IMG/VR virus record: IMGVR_UViG_2711768042_000003
Length of the DNA stretch: 39,964 nucleotides
Direction: 5' to 3' (one strand)
Origin: a virus
Taxonomy: Duplodnaviria; Heunggongvirae; Uroviricota; Caudoviricetes
Of the stretch, positions 20,330 through 39,964 are shown piece after piece (the stretch's first letter is position 1; each line of letters begins with the position of its first letter). The notes under the pieces are model-generated. The model was not told the DNA's origin, did not search any database, and saw only the letters and a list, made by a program, of their open reading frames with translations. The position numbers and the translations under genes are program-made.

Positions 20330-20339
20330 TGTTCATTCC

Positions 20340-20540
20340 ACGGACAAAAACAGAGAAAGGAAACGACAGAGGCCAAAAGGCCTGTTTTCAGCACCTGTCG
20401 TTTCCTTTCTTTTCAGGGGGTGTTTTAAATAAAAACATTAAGTTACGGAGAAGAAGAACGGAAACGCCTTAAACCGGAAAATTTTCATAAATAGCGAAAA
20501 CCCGCGCGCCTTCCGCCCCGTAGCCTGCCGGATCGCCGGA
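20340..20540. other. cos region (cosB-cosN-cosQ equivalent)
   Basis: Immediately upstream of Nu1; lambda-like flanks around a 12-mer at 20507-20518; nested inverted repeats at 20358-20407. Confidence 0.65.
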
Positions 20541-20590
20541 AAGGACCCGCAAAGGTGAGAATAATTATCACTTGCATTAATATCCAGCTT

Positions 20591-20760
20591 CTTCCACCAT
20601 CGCACCGGACGGGCGACTATGAGGGACAAAACCGCGCACCATAAACGCGGTAAAAACCCGGTGTGCATCGTTTTTGATTATTTCCGCACACTCGCGCAGA
20701 AGGAATTCCCCGTCGGGCTACGGTCATGGTTAATGCGGAAATACGGCGACGATGCAGCGC
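20591..20760. repeat. copy 1 of a duplicated ~170 bp element
   Basis: About 90 percent identical to 21542-21710, same orientation. Confidence 0.75.
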
Positions 20761-21518: not shown

Positions 21519-21541
21519 GCTCCTGAATACATGCCCTGTTT

Positions 21542-21710
21542 CTTCCACCCTCGCACAGGACTGGCGAGCATGAGGGACAAACCCGCGAATCATTAGCGCG
21601 GTAAAAACCCGGTGTGCATCGTTTTTGATTATTTCCGCACACTCGCGCAGAGGAGTTCCCCGTCGGGCTACGGTCATGGTTAATGCGGAAATACGGCGAC
21701 GATGCAGCGC
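21542..21710. repeat. copy 2 of the duplicated ~170 bp element
   Basis: Direct repeat of 20591-20760. Confidence 0.75.
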
Positions 21711-23439: not shown

Positions 23440-24516
23440 TTACTCAAATAACTTTTTCACTTCATCAACTGTCTGAAGATAACGTTCACCCTCAATCTCA
23501 ATACCGATTGCCTGACGACCTAACTTCAGCGCGGCTTTAATAGTAGAGCCTGATCCCATAAAGAAATCGGCAACGATATCTCCGGGGCGGGAACTACTTT
23601 TTATAATATGTTCCATCATCGCTGCAGGTTTTTCACATGGGTGCTTGCCAGGATAATATTGCACAGGAGGAAACTCCCATACATCGGTATAAGGTACATC
23701 AGCAGTAACATGAAATGGGCGGCGCAAATTTTCATACTGAGCCTTCAAATCATCATACTGCTTCTTTACTTCCTCATAACGCAATTTCAGATCGCTATAA
23801 CGCTTTTCATGTTCTGAATAATCAACATTAAAAGGATATGGACACGGGACACCGAGTGAATCTGCCTTCCTGCGAAATAATTCGCATAGTTTATTAAAAT
23901 CACTTAATGATGGAAGCCGCCACTGCGAATAAGAAAACCAGTGCGAACACATCTGCTTTCCTGTTGCTGAATTAATGTCTGCGGCTGATATATCTAACTG
24001 ACGGCGAGCCAGCGAAAAAGCATCAATTAGTGGAGAAAAAATATTTTTTCTTAAATCTGCACATTTTGAAGCATAACCTGACTGACCTTTAGCATAACCT
24101 GACGCGCCGTAATGCTCTGCAAATAATATTCTTTCAGTGGCAGGAAAATAAGCCCTTAAACTTTCTTTATGACAACCGCGCCACATACCACTGGGTTTAG
24201 CCCAAATGATATGGTTCAGAACATTGAAACGGTCGCGAGTTAATAATTCAATTTTTGACGCAAGGCGAGAGCCGGTAAACATATACAGGCTGCCATTAGG
24301 GGCCAATATCCGCCAAAATTCTGCCAAAAATTCATCAATCCACCCCAAAAAGTCAGCATCGCTATCCCACTGGTTATCCCATGCGTTAGCCTTTACGCCG
24401 AAGTATGGTGGGTCTGTTGCAATCAAATTGACCGAGTTATCAGGGATGGTTTTGATAAATTGCAGAGAATCTGCGCAAACGAGTTGCGCGCCATGAATAT
24501 TAGTGGTTTTGAACAT
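23440..24516 (-). CDS. DNA N6-adenine/N4-cytosine methyltransferase (orphan)
   Basis: DPPY catalytic motif near the N-terminus, C-terminal FxGSGST AdoMet motif; start taken at MFKTTNIHG, upstream ATG at 24561 possible. Confidence 0.85.
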   Translation of the reverse strand: MFKTTNIHGAQLVCADSLQFIKTIPDNSVNLIATDPPYFGVKANAWDNQWDSDADFLGWIDEFLAEFWRILAPNGSLYMFTGSRLASKIELLTRDRFNVLNHIIWAKPSGMWRGCHKESLRAYFPATERILFAEHYGASGYAKGQSGYASKCADLRKNIFSPLIDAFSLARRQLDISAADINSATGKQMCSHWFSYSQWRLPSLSDFNKLCELFRRKADSLGVPCPYPFNVDYSEHEKRYSDLKLRYEEVKKQYDDLKAQYENLRRPFHVTADVPYTDVWEFPPVQYYPGKHPCEKPAAMMEHIIKSSSRPGDIVADFFMGSGSTIKAALKLGRQAIGIEIEGERYLQTVDEVKKLFE

Positions 24517-24650
24517 AGCTATTATTTTTTTGCCTGGGTAAGCTAACCCGGTGATGCGCATCGCGGGTGGGCTTTAGGTTCAGCCTATAGCTCTGGCATG
24601 GGTTGACCGCAGGACAAGCTGCAACTTGTCCTGCGCCCACTTTTCAGGCA

Positions 24651-24783: not shown

Positions 24784-25011
24784 TTAGAAAGTTGCCTGCT
24801 TATATTCATCGGTCAAAGAATATCGACCAGACCCGCTACGCTTTGCAACCCCAAAACAGATCATCTGTTCGATGATAAATTCAACGGCAGCTTGACTCAA
24901 AAAACAGGCTTCGCTTAACTCTTTCAGGGAAATGCGTGGGTATCCACGCATAACACATTCCACACTCAGGGCCGCTTCAGTCATATTTCCACGAATTTCA
25001 TTAATATTCAT
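24784..25011 (-). CDS. small winged-helix-like DNA-binding protein (hypothetical)
   Basis: 75-aa ORF, second gene of a two-gene minus-strand operon. Confidence 0.5.
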   Translation of the reverse strand: MNINEIRGNMTEAALSVECVMRGYPRISLKELSEACFLSQAAVEFIIEQMICFGVAKRSGSGRYSLTDEYKQATF

Positions 25012-25411: not shown

Positions 25412-25723
25412 ATGTTTAACGTGATAACCCACCCTGCAGCACTGGATGAACTGCTTGAACTACCAGATGATTTGCGAGGTCGCATGACCAGATTAATTGA
25501 GCGACTGGAGAAGGAAGGCAACAAACTGAAGATGCCCCATAGCCGTGTAATAGGTGGAGGGCTTTTTGAACTACGAGTAGGGGATAAAAACATCGCAAGA
25601 ACGCTGTACGCCTACGCGACTGGTAACGAAATTTATCTATTGCATGCATTTGTAAAAAAGACACAGAAAACACCGGTGAAGGCTATCGAAATCGCCAGAA
25701 CTCGCCTGAAGGAGATGAACTGA
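25412..25723 (+). CDS. RelE/ParE-superfamily toxin, Gp49/HigB-like
   Basis: 103 aa; GGAGG RBS; toxin-first order with ATGA overlap onto an XRE antitoxin. Confidence 0.75.
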   Translation: MFNVITHPAALDELLELPDDLRGRMTRLIERLEKEGNKLKMPHSRVIGGGLFELRVGDKNIARTLYAYATGNEIYLLHAFVKKTQKTPVKAIEIARTRLKEMN

Positions 25724-26010
25724 TGAAAGCGAAAGGCATCCCGTTTAACGAAGTAAAAGAAAAACTTCTCAACACTCCAGAAGCCATCAAAGGATATGAA
25801 GAGGCCGATAAAGAGCTGGAGATGGTCGAAATGTTATACGAAATGAGGGAAAGAGCAGGTTTAACGAAGTCAGCTCTGGCTGAACGAATGGGATTGCGCC
25901 CGTCAGCTATCAGCCGCCTGGAAAGCAATCCTTTAGGGGCAAGCATGAAAACTTTATCAAAATATGCCCAAGCATGCGGTGCAACGATTAATATTAATGC
26001 CGTCTATTGA
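25723..26010 (+). CDS. HTH XRE-family antitoxin (HigA-like)
   Basis: 95 aa with XRE-type HTH (LTKSALAERMGLRPSAISRLE). Confidence 0.75.
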   Translation: MKAKGIPFNEVKEKLLNTPEAIKGYEEADKELEMVEMLYEMRERAGLTKSALAERMGLRPSAISRLESNPLGASMKTLSKYAQACGATININAVY

Positions 26011-26856: not shown

Positions 26857-27447
26857 TTACTTAACCCAATTAACTACACCGCCAGCGGCCACAACCGCTT
26901 TTTCACAGTCACGCTCATATCTCAAAGGTTGAAATACACCATCAATAAAATATTTATCTCCACCACATGCTGCTGGAAGTGAAACAGAAAACTGAATACG
27001 ACCATCATCTGGCATTTGCTCACTACAGCTTATCCAACCATCCGGAGTTACCGGAGAGTTGCCAGACAGCTTGTTCAACTTGTAAGTCTGGCTTACAGGT
27101 TTGACACCGTGAAGCATGGTGGCGCGGCAGGCGTTCCAGCCTTCATCAAAACCGACTATGCCATTATTTAAAGTCGGACGAGCATCTGGCACCACCGGCA
27201 CTGGCTTGGCTATATATAGCGGCTGAACATACCAGCCCTTTGATAACCAACTGTCAGCAATGTTTTTACTCCTGGTTATTGCTGGAATACCTAAGCCATT
27301 GTCTGAATGTAGCCATGCCACCGGCTCCTCTTCCAGCGATGCCAGTGCGATTTCATAAGCTCGGCGCTCAATATTGTCTCGAACGTCCAGGCTACCGATT
27401 CGCTCTTTGATTTCTTTAATCAGTTCTTTGTCGGTAAACGTGATCAT
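26857..27447 (-). CDS. hypothetical phage protein
   Basis: Start MITFTDKEL overlaps the upstream stop as TAATG. Confidence 0.55.
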   Translation of the reverse strand: MITFTDKELIKEIKERIGSLDVRDNIERRAYEIALASLEEEPVAWLHSDNGLGIPAITRSKNIADSWLSKGWYVQPLYIAKPVPVVPDARPTLNNGIVGFDEGWNACRATMLHGVKPVSQTYKLNKLSGNSPVTPDGWISCSEQMPDDGRIQFSVSLPAACGGDKYFIDGVFQPLRYERDCEKAVVAAGGVVNWVK

Positions 27448-28025
27448 TATGCTCCAGCCTCCGGTGCTTTCGGCATTACTGCCCAATGAGTGATATTGAC
27501 GTTTTCAAGATCCCCGACCTGAAATGTCCACTGCCAGTCTCCGGTTTCTTTTTGTCCCCAGGTGTACCAGAGAGAACGCCAGCCAATAAGCCAGCCTTCT
27601 CCGTTAGCATCGAATAACAAAACACTTTCATTTGCAGGTGGCAGTTCAACTGACACTGGTGTTACTTTGTTTCCCTGTTCTACAATTCGCTTTCTTGCAG
27701 CTTCCAGCTCAATAGACAATTTTTCCAACTGCTCTTTATGCTTTTTGTATTCCTGATATGCGTGCCAGGACTGTCCTTTGCGCACGCTTTCAGTAATATC
27801 AGCAACCTGCTCTGGAGTTAGCGTAGTCAGTTGCTGGGCTGGAAAAATCATTACTTGTCCGGAATCCCAGTCAAAACCAGCCTGAATTGACTGAACATCA
27901 ACTGATGGTGTTGAACCAATGCTACCTGGTGAATGAACAACAATCGTTACATTCATATCGCAACGCTGGCTGTGTTTGTTGGACAAGATACGATTCACCA
28001 ACTCAGAAAATTTGGAAAATTTCAT
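27447..28025 (-). CDS. DUF551-like phage protein
   Basis: Trp-rich C-terminal domain ending ITHWAVMP. Confidence 0.6.
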   Translation of the reverse strand: MKFSKFSELVNRILSNKHSQRCDMNVTIVVHSPGSIGSTPSVDVQSIQAGFDWDSGQVMIFPAQQLTTLTPEQVADITESVRKGQSWHAYQEYKKHKEQLEKLSIELEAARKRIVEQGNKVTPVSVELPPANESVLLFDANGEGWLIGWRSLWYTWGQKETGDWQWTFQVGDLENVNITHWAVMPKAPEAGA

Positions 28026-31645: not shown

Positions 31646-34600
31646 ATGACATTAAACGATTTCTATGCGGATCGCTTTGGCAGCGATCCGTTCTCGCTAA
31701 TTGAAGCAGCACGGGATGAACTAACCGAGCTGGCACAGATGGCTGGTATCAACTGGTCTGCCTGTTCCGACAACATCCAACTCAACCCTCGCGGGGGTGT
31801 TGAGCGTTACTCTTCATACAATAAAACATCTCCAGAAGCTCTCGAAAAGAGCCTCAAAGGACGCGTAGAAATTTACTCCCGGCTGGAACACAGCAAAGGG
31901 ATTGATTACCCGTTCATTAACTTCGTCCATAAAGGCAGCGATGCTGGCTCATGGAGCGGTTTCTCCTTCCTGTTTTCTGAATATCGCCGTGAGCAACAAC
32001 GGAATAATGCGACCGTGGTCGCACAACCGGAAGAAGAACGGGCAAGAATAGAACGTCAGGCCGAAGCACGTCGTCGCCGTGAAGAACAAAAACGAATTAA
32101 TGACCTGAAAAACAACCAAATGGACCATGAACGTTTGCTGGGATGGCTGGCATTCCACAGCGCGTGGGAACATGCTCCTGCAGAAGACGGCTCATGGCCA
32201 TATGCGATTAAAAAAGGTATTCGTGACGTTTTTAATTCGTGTGATGTGCGTCGCGTGACCAGTCACGACAGCGCAAAATGGAGCAGGGGGCCAACCACGT
32301 ATATGGCTATCCCTCTGGCTCACCTGGACGGTCGTTACGATGGTCGTATTGTGGGTTGGCAGCGAATCGACAAACAAGGTGGAAAATACCAGACCAGCGC
32401 CGTAACCAGCGGCGATTTCGTCGGTGCCTGCTTTGTTATCGGTGAGCTAAAAGGGGCGCAAAACATCGCTGTTACAGAAGGTTTTGCTACTGGTGCATCC
32501 ATCTGGCTTGCCACGAAAAAAGATAAACGCTTTGACGCTGTGGTTGTCGCTGTATCCGCTAATAACATGGTTCATGTTGTGGAACAACTGGTAAACATGT
32601 ACCCGGCGGCAAAAATCACCTGCGCACTGGATAATGACCGGAAATCAGCCACAGAAGGAAAAGGGAATACCGGCCTGCGGACTGGCTATGAAATCTTATC
32701 GAAATTCAACGATGTCCGCTGCGTCTATCCAACTTTTGAAGACGATCCGCAAATGGAGTGCAGTGACTTCAACGACCTGCACAAACTGCGTGGACTTCGT
32801 GAAACAGCACGTCAACTGTTTGCAACTGCAAACCGCCTGAAAACCGGCACTGATTTGCTATCTCTGACGCTCAACCGCCTGAAGACAATTAAGCGGGATA
32901 ACCGTCGTACTTTTGCCAAAGAGCTGCTGAGAGCGGTGGATATTGGCATGCTAACCTGTCCGGTTCCTAACAGTCCGTCAGACTTATTTAACATGTTCTG
33001 CATCGTTCTGCGTGAAATGGGGCTGGAAAATATCTATCGCGCTACGGTAAAAGACCACATTGCCCGTCGCCTGAATAAAAAGTGCCGTATTGCCCAGGCT
33101 CCGCGCTCATTCAGCGAACGCATAACTGATCCCAATAAACGTCCTCAACATATCACCTATAAGCGTTTTGAAACTTCGGTAATGACCGATGACGTCCTGA
33201 AGTATGTGCAATCACTACAGGGGATAGTCATCGTTCGTGCTGGTATGGGTTCCGGCAAATCTACTGGATTGTTACGACCTTTAATGCATAGCTCAGAACG
33301 TGGTATCTCTGTTGCTCACCGTGTTTCCCTTATTGGTGGCCTGTGGGAAATGATGACAGAAGGAAAAGGTGTAAAAGCCGATATCCTGCACTATCAGGAC
33401 CCTGGCTATCAGGAAATGGCTCCATACGCCAGTAAACTGACCATCTGCATAAACTCGATTGTTAAAAACTGCTGGCAACCGTTGATGCGCCAGCACGACT
33501 ATTTTGGCTTTGACGAGGCCACGCAAGGGCTACGTGCCGTTCTTTCCGGTCGGGCTATGGAAAACCCGGTGGCTGTATTCAATACGTTAATCGACGCGCT
33601 GGCCAGAACGGAACAACACCCAATAATGGTGGATGCTGATGCGAACGATCTGCTGGTTGACCTGGCTGAACTGGCTATGAAACGCCGTGAAGAACTAGGT
33701 TTACCGGCATGGCTGCAGATCCACGTAATTGAATTACCTGTTGATGTTCGCAACCGCGAAACAGGTGAGCCAATCCGGGTTTTTTATACAGAAAAAGATC
33801 GCATTATGACCGAGGTGGTGAAAGCTGTATCGGATGGCGAAAAAATCATGTTGGCCACCGACAGCTCCACCTTTGCAGAAGATGTGACAGCCACCCTGAG
33901 AATGCATTTTCCTGGTAAGAAATTTCTGTGTGTAAACCAGAAAAACAAACCAGAGCCAGAAGTTGAAGCATTTACCAATCAACCGAAAAAGATGGTCAAA
34001 AAATACGACGGCCTGATTTATAGCCCGTCTATTTCATCCGGTGTGTCGATTGAGCAAAAACATTTTGACCGTCATTTCGGCATGTTCTGTGGTGAAGTTG
34101 TACCCAGCGACGCAGTGCAAATGCTACGCCGCGACCGTACAGCAAAAGAATTTATTATCGGCTTTGATAAAGCTCGCGCAAAACGTGAAACTGACCCGCA
34201 AAAAATAGAACGAGCATTCGCCCAGGCATTGCTTGCTACCGCAGGCATGAACGGTGAACTGACGGATGTCGTTTTCGATGGCGACCGTATATCAATGGGG
34301 GTGGCCAATACCGACTTTACCAGGATGAAAATTAAAGCAGCCGCAATTGAAGCGTCTGCGCGTAACGACTACGCCAGCAACATGATCTGCATCATGCACA
34401 GCGACGGTTATAAGGTATCGCCGCTGGCCACCGATTATGCTGCGAATGATATCGGTAAAGATCTGCGTAAAGAAGCGCGGGATATTGTGTGGGAACAGAC
34501 ACTGGATCTGCATCTCAATACAGAAACTCCACAAGAATCAGAGCGTGAAGAACTGCTAAAAAAACGCGCGCTGACGCTTGAAGAACAAGCAAAACTTGTC

Positions 34601-35641
34601 CGCTGGGATATTGAGAACGAACTGAAACTACCGGTTGAAGAAGGCACGCTGAAATTCTATTTCGATGGTGCTCGAGACAAAGTTCGCCGCTATGAAACAA
34701 TGCTTTTAGATGAGGTAACAGCTCGTCGTTACGACCGGGAAGAAGCAGCCATCAATTTTACCTACGCATACCGTCAGGCGGGACAGTGGCAATATTTTGT
34801 AGTGACCGCGATGACTCGCGAGCAGGCTGATGATGTCTTTAAAACTAAATTCCCTGGAATAATCGACTACAAGGTAAAAGCTACTCCTACTGTTGAAGTC
34901 GGGGCGCGCGGTTTCTATGCGCTTAAATCAGCAACTCTCCGGCAGTACTTTATCGACTGCGGTATCAACCCTGAGACTATGACCGGCGAGGCGACTCAGG
35001 AGCGTCTCAAATTCGCTCGAGATAACCTCATGACAGCCGAACGCCGTGACCTGTTGAATAACGTTCTGCACATTGGTGGTTTTATGACGCCAAAAGGGAA
35101 GCCTAAAGTGCCGGAAGCGTTGTTTAAAAACATTTGCGACTCTCTTGGCCTTAAAACAGGTAAACGTCGCGGCAGAGACGGCGATAAGCGTCCAACCTTG
35201 CGTTTTGTTGAGCCTGAATCAGCGGCATTTATGCTGGATATTCTTGTTCAGCGTCAGAAAGATGGCCTAACCCTAAAAACGCGTAAAGCCGAGAAGACAG
35301 CCATCGAAATGGATCGCGATTTGGATCTCAATATATATATGGATGATAAAACGCGATCCACAAACGAGCAGGTTCAAAACGCCCCTCATTCAGTAATTTC
35401 TGAGGCTTTGGCCGTATTGCCGGTGGCTGTTCCTGAGTCCTGGGCGATGAGTGCGCTTTCCGGTGAGGAGCTGGCCACTATGTCATCATGGTCATCAGCC
35501 AGCATAGCTATGACGTTTGCATCTCTGTATCTCACAGAGTTCATGGATCACTTGTCCAGCAATGAATTGCGGCGGTTACGAGAATACATTACCGGGAATA
35601 GCTCATGCAGCTACGAAGAGCAGGGCGCTTTCTATGGGTAA
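31646..35641 (+). CDS. repA: multidomain replication protein RepA (primase Toprim plus P-loop helicase)
   Basis: 1331 aa; Toprim motifs (VTEGFATG, DND); Walker A GMGSGKST; Walker B FGFDEA. Confidence 0.9.
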   Translation: MTLNDFYADRFGSDPFSLIEAARDELTELAQMAGINWSACSDNIQLNPRGGVERYSSYNKTSPEALEKSLKGRVEIYSRLEHSKGIDYPFINFVHKGSDAGSWSGFSFLFSEYRREQQRNNATVVAQPEEERARIERQAEARRRREEQKRINDLKNNQMDHERLLGWLAFHSAWEHAPAEDGSWPYAIKKGIRDVFNSCDVRRVTSHDSAKWSRGPTTYMAIPLAHLDGRYDGRIVGWQRIDKQGGKYQTSAVTSGDFVGACFVIGELKGAQNIAVTEGFATGASIWLATKKDKRFDAVVVAVSANNMVHVVEQLVNMYPAAKITCALDNDRKSATEGKGNTGLRTGYEILSKFNDVRCVYPTFEDDPQMECSDFNDLHKLRGLRETARQLFATANRLKTGTDLLSLTLNRLKTIKRDNRRTFAKELLRAVDIGMLTCPVPNSPSDLFNMFCIVLREMGLENIYRATVKDHIARRLNKKCRIAQAPRSFSERITDPNKRPQHITYKRFETSVMTDDVLKYVQSLQGIVIVRAGMGSGKSTGLLRPLMHSSERGISVAHRVSLIGGLWEMMTEGKGVKADILHYQDPGYQEMAPYASKLTICINSIVKNCWQPLMRQHDYFGFDEATQGLRAVLSGRAMENPVAVFNTLIDALARTEQHPIMVDADANDLLVDLAELAMKRREELGLPAWLQIHVIELPVDVRNRETGEPIRVFYTEKDRIMTEVVKAVSDGEKIMLATDSSTFAEDVTATLRMHFPGKKFLCVNQKNKPEPEVEAFTNQPKKMVKKYDGLIYSPSISSGVSIEQKHFDRHFGMFCGEVVPSDAVQMLRRDRTAKEFIIGFDKARAKRETDPQKIERAFAQALLATAGMNGELTDVVFDGDRISMGVANTDFTRMKIKAAAIEASARNDYASNMICIMHSDGYKVSPLATDYAANDIGKDLRKEARDIVWEQTLDLHLNTETPQESEREELLKKRALTLEEQAKLVRWDIENELKLPVEEGTLKFYFDGARDKVRRYETMLLDEVTARRYDREEAAINFTYAYRQAGQWQYFVVTAMTREQADDVFKTKFPGIIDYKVKATPTVEVGARGFYALKSATLRQYFIDCGINPETMTGEATQERLKFARDNLMTAERRDLLNNVLHIGGFMTPKGKPKVPEALFKNICDSLGLKTGKRRGRDGDKRPTLRFVEPESAAFMLDILVQRQKDGLTLKTRKAEKTAIEMDRDLDLNIYMDDKTRSTNEQVQNAPHSVISEALAVLPVAVPESWAMSALSGEELATMSSWSSASIAMTFASLYLTEFMDHLSSNELRRLREYITGNSSCSYEEQGAFYG
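32008..32025. promoter_or_regulatory. centromere-like palindrome inside repA (outer base of one arm mismatched)
   Basis: ATGCGACC-GT-GGTCGCAC, encodes NATVVAQ in the RepA frame. Confidence 0.45.
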
Positions 35642-36970: not shown

Positions 36971-37083
36971 TTGACGTGTGCGTCGTTTTGGAGGTAAAGT
37001 CACCTCGCTGCGGTAAATCCCGCAGTCGGGACTTCGCAATCCTGGCAAAACGAAGCGCACAACACGCGCCAGCGTGTTTTTTT
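36971..37083 (+). ncRNA. candidate small regulatory RNA (c4/CI-like) with promoter and terminator
   Basis: Possible -35 TTGACG, 18 bp, -10 TAAAGT; stem-loop 37008-37025; terminator ACACGC-GCCA-GCGTGT plus U-run at 37062-37083; no long ORF. Confidence 0.35.
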
Positions 37084-37249
37084 GTGTGTATAGACCTGCG
37101 CATATCCGAATTATGGTGGCTCAGGTGGGGCTGACTTCGGTCGGGCCGGTTTCTTCGTTTACCGGTATTGCGAACCCCGCCTGGGCTACCACCAATAAAG
37201 AGATTCGCAACTCTGGTGGTAGCACGACCAATAAAACGGAGTGCATACC

Positions 37250-37414
37250 ATGTTCAAATTCAAATTTGCGGCAGTCGTTCGCACAGACAAAAAGTCCCAC
37301 ATTCATCATCTTTCCACTATCGCGTCATCTGAACGGGAAGCTCGTCGCCAGTTCGCCAGCCGGTTTGTCCTGGTATTGTCTGCCCGTATTCCGGTGCGCG
37401 AGGTGGCTGCATGA
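37250..37414 (+). CDS. small ORF (54 aa), first of three translationally coupled ORFs
   Basis: GGAG RBS; sequence MFKFKFAAVVRTDKK; stop overlaps the next start as ATGA. Confidence 0.45.
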   Translation: MFKFKFAAVVRTDKKSHIHHLSTIASSEREARRQFASRFVLVLSARIPVREVAA

Positions 37415-37644
37415 ATCAGGTAAAAATGAACACTGTTGGCCTGCTGGAATCGTTGGATGAACGTCTGGCTCAGGTCTATGCGCTCGTATCATCAGCCCAT
37501 CGGACAGTCTCCAGTTGTGAGGCGTCGATTTACCTCTCAGAGGCTGGAAAACTTCTGCAGATTGCGTGTGAGTTAACGCATGAAGCACAGGGATATTCTG
37601 CGTCTCTCTCGTCGCACTTGCTGCGCGATAAGGAGGCTGAATGA
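37411..37644 (+). CDS. hypothetical protein (77 aa)
   Basis: ATGA overlaps at both ends. Confidence 0.5.
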   Translation: MNQVKMNTVGLLESLDERLAQVYALVSSAHRTVSSCEASIYLSEAGKLLQIACELTHEAQGYSASLSSHLLRDKEAE

Positions 37645-37850: not shown

Positions 37851-39764
37851 TTATCCGAAATATGTCAGCCATGCTAACTGCATTGCTGATATAGGGCTGT
37901 TTGCACTGCCGGACCAAGCATAATTCTGGCCATTATAATGAAATTCAACAACGTATGATCCATCACCAATATTTCTCACAGGCTTAAATACCGGCTTAGA
38001 TACAGGTGAAGAAGGCGCGGGCGGTTGCTGTTCTTCTACGCTCTCTTCCTCTTCCTCTTCCTCTTCCTCTTCCTCTATCTCTATCTCAATTTCGTCGTCA
38101 TCCAGATCGTCATCCTCTGATAATTCATCCGTCTGTTCAGGTATTGCTTCCAGCTCTTCTTCGTCAGGCATAACGATTTCTGGAGAATCTATTTTCAGCT
38201 GCCATTGTCCATTTTCGCCAACAAATTGCCCCAGAGCATCAGCAGCAAATTCTAGGTATCGACTAATCATTGTAGGGCTAAATTTGAATGCTCTTAGAGT
38301 GCTGTTCGTGATTTTTATAGAGGGGTCCTGCTCTACCAGCTGCTTAACTGTGTTATGCAGACGAACTCCGGCATCTCCTCTGGCGAATCCTGGCATTTCG
38401 TCATCAAGCTGCTGCAATGCTTCCAGCCTGGTATTTTCGTTTCCAGTATTTGGCCTCCATGTCTTTGAGAAGTTGGCCAGCTTGAATTGCTTATAGTGTA
38501 ATTGAGTGTTTTCATCGTCATGGCCTAAAATTTCCATAAAGAAAACATCCTCATCTACGTTTTTCCAACGAGGATCTACGCGGAAAAACATTTCATACGC
38601 AATACGGGCATAAATAGCACGACTATCTTTATAAACACGGCGGTCATCTTTGAAAAATGATTTAACCCACGGGTTAAAAGCCTTTGCTAATATGGCATTA
38701 ATCCGTCCGTTTTCAGAGCGTGTGTCGTTATCTCCATAACCTTTAACGACATCATCAAAATCAGATGCTGCTGGGCATGAGCGAAGTACATTTATTAAAT
38801 AAACAAATGTTTTTGCTTCGCATAATGTATATATTTTTCTGGTTATATCATCAGAAGTTCTTTTTTTTGCTTGGCCTAAAAAATCAACGGTATACTTACC
38901 AGAAACAGTAAATGTACCTTGATACATAATCTCAATCATTCGTCTTCCTGACAATGCAGCAAGTGCAAATGCCAAAGGAGCCATACCTGAACGAGTGTTT
39001 AGATTATTTAATGTAGCAGGGCTATTTATAATATCGTAAATAGCTTGCATATATTTGGGGTAATCAATGACCACCACGTTACGTTTCTTATTGTGCAGAA
39101 CGTCCGCCCATCGTTGCTGGATAGATGCGCGTTCGGCAGGGCTTAGTTGAAGATGATAGAGAATCTCATGGTTAACTTTTAGCTGATTCAACTCCTCAAG
39201 TAAGGCAGATCCTTGCTGTAGTAATTTATATAAATAATCGCGCTTATCTTTCCAGTTATCGCTAGTTAAATCAGAAATGGCGAATTGCCACTCTTTATAT
39301 TTATTTGATAATTTTAATAACTTATTATGATTTTTGTTATCGCCAATTCTGATATTAGATAAATCTTCTGATAGAGGGAGAATTAATTTTAATTTTGCCT
39401 GTAAAGCTGACATTCTCTGGCGAATATCGGCAGCAGGTAGAGAAAGCCATGATAATAGCTCCTCATTATATAAAGGATACTTTTCAGATAGGCGATGTAT
39501 ATTTTTTTCAAAGCTATGATGAAGTTTATCATCAAACCGTTTTCTGGCCCTGCTCATATAGGCATTGAATGTGTTCGCTGTAATTCTTTTTTCTAATCCT
39601 TTACCCCTAAACTTTCGCTTGTCATTAAATAATGCATTTTTAAATTTTAATGCAACAGCCTTTATTTTTTTTGTTTTCTCCCCTTGAGGACGGTCAGAGT
39701 TATCTATTGACTCAACATCGCTAACAAGTGAGTTTATTAATTCACCGATTTTTACTTTGCTCAT
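37851..39764 (-). CDS. telN: protelomerase (telomere resolvase)
   Basis: 637 aa; N-terminus MSKVKIGELIN and long conserved blocks match N15 TelN as I recall it; AGGAGAGG RBS. Confidence 0.95.
   Translation of the reverse strand: MSKVKIGELINSLVSDVESIDNSDRPQGEKTKKIKAVALKFKNALFNDKRKFRGKGLEKRITANTFNAYMSRARKRFDDKLHHSFEKNIHRLSEKYPLYNEELLSWLSLPAADIRQRMSALQAKLKLILPLSEDLSNIRIGDNKNHNKLLKLSNKYKEWQFAISDLTSDNWKDKRDYLYKLLQQGSALLEELNQLKVNHEILYHLQLSPAERASIQQRWADVLHNKKRNVVVIDYPKYMQAIYDIINSPATLNNLNTRSGMAPLAFALAALSGRRMIEIMYQGTFTVSGKYTVDFLGQAKKRTSDDITRKIYTLCEAKTFVYLINVLRSCPAASDFDDVVKGYGDNDTRSENGRINAILAKAFNPWVKSFFKDDRRVYKDSRAIYARIAYEMFFRVDPRWKNVDEDVFFMEILGHDDENTQLHYKQFKLANFSKTWRPNTGNENTRLEALQQLDDEMPGFARGDAGVRLHNTVKQLVEQDPSIKITNSTLRAFKFSPTMISRYLEFAADALGQFVGENGQWQLKIDSPEIVMPDEEELEAIPEQTDELSEDDDLDDDEIEIEIEEEEEEEEEEESVEEQQPPAPSSPVSKPVFKPVRNIGDGSYVVEFHYNGQNYAWSGSANSPISAMQLAWLTYFG
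38045..38074. repeat. hexanucleotide repeat (CTTCCT)x5 inside telN
   Basis: Five perfect tandem units; encodes part of the poly-Glu linker on the minus strand. Confidence 0.8.
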
Positions 39765-39928
39765 CTTTCCTCTCCTGATTATCCGCTCGGATTATCGTAA
39801 CACAATTTGAGAATAAGATAACTAATAACGCGTTAACTTAGTCACAAATTAACATAACACAATAACGGATAATAAATAAAAACACAATATCGGAACATTA
39901 AAATTTGTTCCTTGACTTTGTTCTGAAA

Positions 39929-39964
39929 ATCAGCACATAATTCCCCATTATACGCGCGTATAAT
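39929..39964. other. telomere-resolution palindrome (telO-like); window ends 9 nt past its centre
   Basis: ATCAGCACATAATTCCCCATTATACGCG|CGTATAAT; perfect palindrome centred between 39955 and 39956. Confidence 0.7.

Follow-up and report, generated by a model that had tools for sequence, protein, structure and literature searches.

A contig ending inside a telomere palindrome next to telN: the probable hairpin end of an N15-like linear phage-plasmid

Why should a phage contig stop 9 nt past the centre of a palindrome that adjoins a protelomerase gene? This question is posed by the right edge of the stretch of DNA analyzed here, which at its full length of 39,964 nt is referred to as the window. 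An earlier note, made from the letters alone, read the window as part of a hairpin-ended phage-plasmid, and this reading is supported by the telomere arm, the protelomerase, the permutation of the genome and the fold-backs found in close relatives. We consider it very likely that the window represents about 40 kb of a ~46-kb Escherichia N15-like (Ravinvirus-type) telomere phage-plasmid in its linear prophage form, and that its right edge is the telN-proximal hairpin telomere. In the N15 nomenclature this end corresponds to telL, and it is the end annotated as telL in the relative PhiR46_1.

Positions 39947-39964 (ATTATACGCGCGTATAAT) are identical to their own reverse complement, which confirms the perfect 18-nt palindrome described in the earlier note, with its dyad centre at 39955/39956 and the window edge truncating it 9 nt beyond. 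This is the visible part of a telO core (ATTATACGC before the centre and GCGTATAAT after it) that is identical in the telRL sites of N15 and phiKO2. The 27 nt leading up to the centre (ATCAGCACATAATTCCCCATTATACGC, 39929-39955, plus strand) make up the telN-proximal telomere arm, which is half of a 54-bp palindrome intact in relatives. The 9-nt overshoot (39956-39964, plus strand) can be compared with overshoots of 21-71 nt in related contigs, all of them perfect mirrors. By analogy with known protelomerases, the central CGCGCG (39953-39958) would be the 6-bp interval between the staggered scissile phosphates, and following resolution it would form the hairpin turn. Mononucleotide shuffles predict 0.23 perfect palindromes with arms of at least 9 nt per window, and just one other, consisting of A/T only, is present in the 39,964 nt (24034-24051). 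We estimate the chance of a palindrome centre lying within 9 nt of the window edge at roughly one in several thousand. In other words, the terminal palindrome is a real and not a chance feature. The A/T-only palindrome (AGAAAAAATATTTTTTCT) lies within a DNA methylase ORF (23440-24561, minus strand).

A hairpin read-through and an intact telRL would give the same 9 nt after the centre, in the latter case as the first 9 nt of the other arm. Since they fit both forms, the window by itself is no proof of a hairpin. When folded, a read-through strand gives a perfect hairpin (-79 kcal/mol, z = -26). An intact telRL continuing into sopA would read GCGTATAATGGGGAATTATGTGCTGATATGTTCTTG..., and the mirror-image arm on the sop side is expected to end ...ACATATCAGCACATAATTCCCCATTATACGC.

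The gene next to the palindrome is telN (37851-39764, minus strand), encoding a 637-aa protelomerase (telomere resolvase). It is transcribed away from the telomere, and its ORF starts 191 nt from the dyad centre. That a protelomerase adjoins the palindrome, as had been proposed, is borne out by four Pfam domains above the cut-offs (TelK_N, TelK_muzzle, ResT-TelK_cat and TelK_stirrup), by 77% identity to N15 gp29/TelN and by a match to the TelK crystal-structure chain 2V6E (E = 5.1e-295, residues 1-536). The motif carrying the nucleophilic tyrosine (...TQLHYKQF...) is conserved. Judging from the biochemistry of TelN and TelK and from the ...LHYKQF... motif, the enzyme would cleave and rejoin the tel site with a 6-bp stagger and a phosphotyrosine linkage. 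The C-terminal part (residues ~540-575; window 37851-38150) contains an acidic run, DDDLDDDEIEIEIEEEEEEEEEEE, which is longer than in N15 TelN. The C-terminal domains are reported to be variable and not needed for hairpin protection (PMC12624138).

Between telN and the telomere arm there is a non-coding spacer of 164 nt (39765-39928, plus strand), which contains three copies of AACACAAT (39799-39806, 39856-39863 and 39881-39888) and an inverted repeat, GGAACA-N8-TGTTCC (39892-39911). All three copies are on the plus strand and no other copy is present on either strand of the window. With 1.85 copies expected in the window the count itself is not significant; the case for this motif is that its copies cluster in a 90-nt stretch of a single strand and are conserved in N15 and phiKO2, the spacer blocks being conserved in the alignment with these two phages. 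In N15, tos spans ~310 bp, and degenerate L1/L2 copies of the L3 motif extend the target (PMC12624138). By this comparison, the spacer is probably the left half of a predicted tos-like extended TelN binding region, and the AACACAAT blocks plausibly correspond to the degenerate L1/L2 copies of N15. A promoter scan of 39500-39964 gave three promoter-like matches against 2.5 expected, and we claim no telN promoter. The 'terminator-like' match in the same scan is the GGAACA-N8-TGTTCC inverted repeat.

The gene content of the window is that of a phage-plasmid. Inwards from the telomere, telN is followed by an immA-type locus, repA, genes for a CI-like repressor, a Cro-type HTH protein (named so from the annotation of near-identical contigs) and Q, a methylase, lysis genes, cos, and lambda-like head and tail genes ending with J and Lom. 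The repA gene (31646-35641, plus strand) encodes a 1331-aa primase/helicase-type replication protein of a linear plasmid, with Pfam matches to Herpes_ori_bp and, below the curated cut-off, to Toprim_3; in records 99-100% identical to it, the protein is annotated as 'plasmid replication protein, CyRepA1 family' or 'primase'. A cosN-like cohesive-end site, GGGCGGAAGGCG, is located at 20507-20518 (minus strand), joined, internal and flanked on either side by continuous sequence. It was found by reading the region and aligning 20331-20600 (minus strand) to the junction of the end and the start of the N15 virion record, which carries a sticky-end annotation on its first 12 nt. A search for the lambda cosN pattern GGGCGGCGACCT with up to two mismatches gave nothing at the expected place, the window's cohesive end differing from it at four positions.

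As cos is joined and internal while tel lies at the edge, the window has the permutation of the plasmid prophage and not that of the virion. The presence of RepA fits this permutation, and so does the finding that no integrase is present among the ORFs scanned in the window, which agrees with what the earlier note had stated. The non-structural ORFs scanned correspond to the methylase, Q, the CI-like repressor, an exonuclease, DUF551 proteins, a toxin-antitoxin pair and Lom. Neither is an integrase among the 64 features annotated in PhiR46_1, which is 98-99% identical to the window.

Several other features of the replicon are worth pointing out. Two Rfam matches at the gathering level, isrK (37007-37082, 52.8 bits) and C4 antisense RNA (37109-37196, 82.3 bits), lie on the plus strand just upstream of Icd-like/antirepressor genes, and the region 37007-37196 is an anti-immunity locus of the N15 immA and P1/P4 type. 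A 128-aa 'Ash' ORF (37074-37460) overlaps this RNA locus. At 25412-26010 (plus strand), a Gp49/HigB-like protein (103 aa) is followed by an HTH protein (95 aa), both in the orientation opposite to that of their neighbours. This pair resembles a HigBA-type toxin-antitoxin and plausibly represents a plasmid-stability module.

Only one terminus of the replicon is inside the window. The other edge, the window start, falls in a repetitive part of a side-tail-fibre (stf) gene, which is on the minus strand. There is a 47-nt exact direct repeat (1-47 and 190-236) as well as 42/21-nt tandem repeats (181-284), and positions 1-80 match two places in the stf gene of PhiR46_1. Because tail-fibre repeats are a typical break point of short-read assembly, the window start is probably an assembly break. 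According to PhiR46_1, the missing 5.9 kb would include the rest of stf, tail-fibre assembly genes, parB/parA and the second telomere. The sopA/sopB genes are absent from the window; in relatives they are found within these 5.9 kb, by the other telomere.

To see what lies beyond the dyad centre, we turned to relatives; the identical TelN protein occurs in 104 indexed blocks of the assembly collection. Three outcomes are seen in independent assemblies of near-identical elements: a stop within ~90 nt of the centre, a perfect mirror of 21 nt to more than 8 kb, or a junction with the sopA side. The plasmid pEND_Eco 123-2 (NZ_CP126957.1), deposited as a 68,426-bp 'circular' plasmid, is 100% identical to the window over the last 2,165 nt. 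Past the centre it continues as a perfect mirror, for 3,009 nt (to the locus edge) in locus L002 and for 8,461 nt in locus L007, with telN duplicated head to head. The same fold-back is seen in phage YDC107_1 and, at two places per record, in several PLSDB records of 60-90 kb. Among contigs with the identical TelN, one assembled by MEGAHIT at k141 (L012) mirrors 71 nt past the centre and another (L013) 60 nt, whereas three NCBI contigs end 15, 28 and 28 nt short of it. Two more (L010, assembled at k119, and L011) carry the perfect 54-bp palindrome, with its 27-nt arms, joined to the sopA side. Of the nine IMG/VR contigs that carry the arm, five terminate or turn back at the centre, overshooting it by 21, 34, 51, 654 and 1,759 nt (the 654-nt mirror being at the sop-side telomere), and the remaining four have a joined telRL. 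Nine PLSDB records begin or end ~5-93 nt from the centre. In NZ_CP101200.1 (46,173 bp), a record of this lineage, only the last 31 nt up to the centre are missing on the telN side, where it starts, and 47 nt on the sop side, where it ends; it is effectively the whole linear replicon. We also considered the rule derived from de Bruijn graphs that the overshoot should equal (k+/-1)/2. This rule fits the 71-nt mirror of L012 but not the 60-nt mirror of L013, and the 9 nt of the window would need an unusual k of 17-19, unlike the k values common in assemblers, so it was not retained.

The inverted copy that the earlier note had regarded as the mark of a fold-back is therefore present in near-identical public records, as perfect mirrors of 21 to 8,461 nt. 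Continuation into unrelated chromosomal sequence, which the earlier note had set against its own reading, is found in none of the relatives inspected. Those that continue past the centre without a mirror enter the sopA/sopB arm of the same replicon and never a chromosome. Importantly for the choice between the two forms, the mirrors run beyond the 27-nt arm into unique telN-side sequence; they need a hairpin or a telLL junction as template and are impossible from an intact telRL. Together with the folding, they lend indirect support to the prediction that the ends of this element are covalently closed hairpins.

The alternative that survives best is that the sequenced DNA had an intact telRL, being circular replicative or virion-derived, and that the assembler broke within the 54-bp palindrome, making the edge an artefact. 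There is no mismatch between the joined form and the 9 nt past the centre, and joined telRL sites do occur: about seven of the related contigs and records inspected carry one (L004, L005, L026-L029 and the two identical-TelN contigs L010 and L011), four of the nine IMG/VR matches are of this form, and several PLSDB records are written as circular through the tel site. In a joined molecule the sopA arm beyond 39964 would read GGGGAATTATGTGCTGATATGTTCTTG.... However, ordinary reads and final k-mers exceed 54 bp, and joined molecules are normally assembled through a palindrome of this length, as in the k119 contig L010. The mirrors in relatives, which reach unique telN-side sequence, also speak for hairpin or telLL molecules. 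In addition, the joined cos indicates that the DNA was not simply virion DNA, and lysogens of the N15 family keep the prophage linear (PMC12624138). Therefore, we regard an intact telRL in the sequenced DNA as improbable.

Even less credit can be given to the possibility that the edge is an arbitrary pipeline cut inside a longer record, folded back or joined, with the position of the palindrome being coincidental. It is true that none of the three annotated collections contains a record identical to the window, which is matched at best at 99.5% over 25 kb. However, we estimate at only ~4e-4 the probability that a random cut in a 46-kb element would come to lie 9 nt or less from the dyad centre. 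Moreover, the odd length of 39,964 nt and the start inside tail-fibre repeats look like those of a whole draft contig, and many independent contigs end at the same place. Finally, an integrated or otherwise non-telomeric prophage, with the tel half-site as a relic beside chromosomal DNA, is effectively refuted: nothing was found in its favour beyond a lambda-like structural module, common in chromosomal prophages, whereas neither the scanned ORFs nor the annotation of PhiR46_1 include an integrase, both telN and repA are intact, every relative near-identical over the telN region is a stand-alone replicon or contig of ~46 kb, and past the centre these have only a mirror copy or the sop arm.

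If the edge is the hairpin telomere, as we prefer, the events leading to it might be as follows. After infection the cos ends would join, and a TelN dimer would bind the 54-bp palindrome telRL. TelN would then cut each strand, 6 bp apart about the dyad (at CGCGCG, 39953-39958), via 3'-phosphotyrosine intermediates, swap the 5' ends and reseal each strand onto its own complement, yielding two covalently closed hairpins. Bidirectional replication from repA would produce telLL and telRR inverted junctions, to be resolved likewise, and TelN would stay bound, shielding the hairpin from SbcCD. On this scheme, the contig would stop at the right edge of the window because the molecule ends there, the 9 nt beyond the centre would come from the complementary strand around the hairpin tip, and the opposite contig end would be the assembly break inside the tail-fibre repeats. 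The mechanism is established for N15 TelN and phiKO2 TelK, and we extend it to the window's element by analogy. A 6-bp spacing of the two cuts about the dyad is common to all known protelomerases, and cutting via 3'-phosphotyrosine links, with the 5' ends swapped and resealed into two hairpins, is established for the family (PMC3558466). The telRL and tos sites and the protection of hairpins from SbcCD by bound TelN have been described as well (PMC12624138).

What does this mean for the record itself? The contig would best be labelled as part of a linear N15-like phage-plasmid, incomplete and with a true telomere at one terminus, and not as a circular plasmid or an integrated prophage. Public assemblies mishandle hairpin ends in several ways: replicons are recorded as 'circular', extended to 60-90 kb by fold-back duplication or truncated at the termini. 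Many 'complete, circular' public records are fold-back artefacts of 60-90 kb with telN head to head (L002, L003 and L007-L009, including NZ_CP126957.1, CP025712.1 and JZWQ02000004.1, as well as PLSDB rows). In YDC107_1 the second telN copy has been split by sequencing errors into fragments annotated as 'protelomerase domain protein'. Other public records are written as circular through telRL. All of these, the fold-back records included, are misannotated linear replicons. A survey of this kind is useful for curation and for the detection of phage-plasmids, and it adds no new biology.

The feature itself is already known and ordinary, since near-identical elements with an annotated telomere are present in GenBank. 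N15-like linear phage-plasmids of E. coli and Shigella that combine lambda-like structural genes with a phiKO2/N15-like plasmid region have been reported (bioRxiv 10.1101/2025.09.12.675607), and a literature search found no paper mentioning PhiR46_1 or ECOR13 telomere phages. One might ask if the TelN/tel pair of the lineage with the lambda structural module is a distinct specificity variant that does not cross-react with the N15 and phiKO2 sites. What would point this way are the perfect 54-bp palindrome, the 3-5 arm differences from N15 and a TelN with only 77% identity to that of N15. If this were the case, it would be a natural orthogonal hairpin-telomere system with its own incompatibility and its own behaviour in SbcCD protection, a prospect that we consider doubtful.

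The closest known systems are E. coli elements. PhiR46_1 (PV340565.1, host E. coli ECOR13) is a linear record of 46,290 bp with a 'telL site' and a 'telR site' annotated at its ends and parA/parB beside the far end, and the window is collinear with the reverse complement of its positions 3-40363 at 98-99% identity. Over the collinear 40 kb, identity to PhiR46_1, pEND_Eco 123-2 and pEC21Z151-46K (NZ_CP101200.1) amounts to 98-100%. These elements share the window's gene order (telN, immA, repA, immunity, lysis, cos, lambda-like head and tail), and their telomere arm is the same save for one T/C variant (ATAATTTCCC vs ATAATTCCCC). The window differs from them in being without the last 5.9 kb, in a non-aligned segment (27006-27688) and in rearranged 172-nt blocks near cos. 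The short non-aligned segment, a variable accessory region, is contained in two DUF551-domain ORFs (26857-27486 and 27447-28025). The 172-nt blocks (20589-20760 and 21540-21710) each align to a separate part of PhiR46_1 (93% and 92%), a sign of local rearrangement or of a repeat between the lysis/accessory genes and cos.

N15 itself (AF064539.1; Ravinvirus N15) has an annotated inverted repeat cut at 24802/3. The resemblance to the N15 telO half-site that the earlier note had pointed out holds when the sequences are compared: window positions 39928-39955 match the sop-side arm of N15 at 25 of 28 positions and the telN-side arm at 23 of 28. The inner 11 nt, CCATTATACGC, and the 22-bp telO core, CCATTATACGC followed by GCGTATAATGG, are identical in N15, phiKO2 and the window's lineage. 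The two systems are also alike in layout (sopA, telRL and telN transcribed away), in the conserved flanking repeat blocks, in RepA, in the C4-type immA locus and in a cos of the same architecture. On the other hand, the outer arm differs at 3-5 of 28 positions, the DNA is only ~73% identical over telN, and telRL of N15 is an imperfect 56-bp repeat whereas that of the window's lineage is a perfect 54-bp palindrome. The window has GGGCGGAAGGCG as its cohesive end where N15 has GGGCGGCGTCCG, and the structural genes of the window are close to lambda-type prophages widespread in E. coli. The perfect 54-bp palindrome, the 3-5 arm substitutions and the other cohesive end are ordinary lineage variation.

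Beyond E. coli, Klebsiella phage phiKO2 (AY374448.1), the source of TelK (2V6E), has the same telO core and the same outer motif, ATCAGCACATAAT, as the window. However, its arm differs between the core and the outer motif, its DNA is ~73% identical over 84% of the telN region, and the host and the rest of the genome are different. The exact 22-bp telO was found in only one contig of the GTDB species representatives, from Pseudocitrobacter vendiensis (NZ_CALSBS010000033.1, 46,169 bp; L033), where it lies (2958-2979) in a longer palindrome with N15-like outer arms (ATCAGCACACAGTAGCCC...); this indicates an N15-type telomere phage-plasmid in Pseudocitrobacter, although a single contig is too little for any statement on distribution. 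Yersinia PY54 Tel, Vibrio VP882 and Borrelia ResT are not close relatives. DNA similarity to them is limited to a short stretch of the catalytic domain, and the PY54 palindrome has a different sequence with only the central ACGCGCGT in common with the window. Nonetheless, they belong to the same class of reaction, in which a tyrosine-recombinase-like resolvase acts on a palindromic junction.
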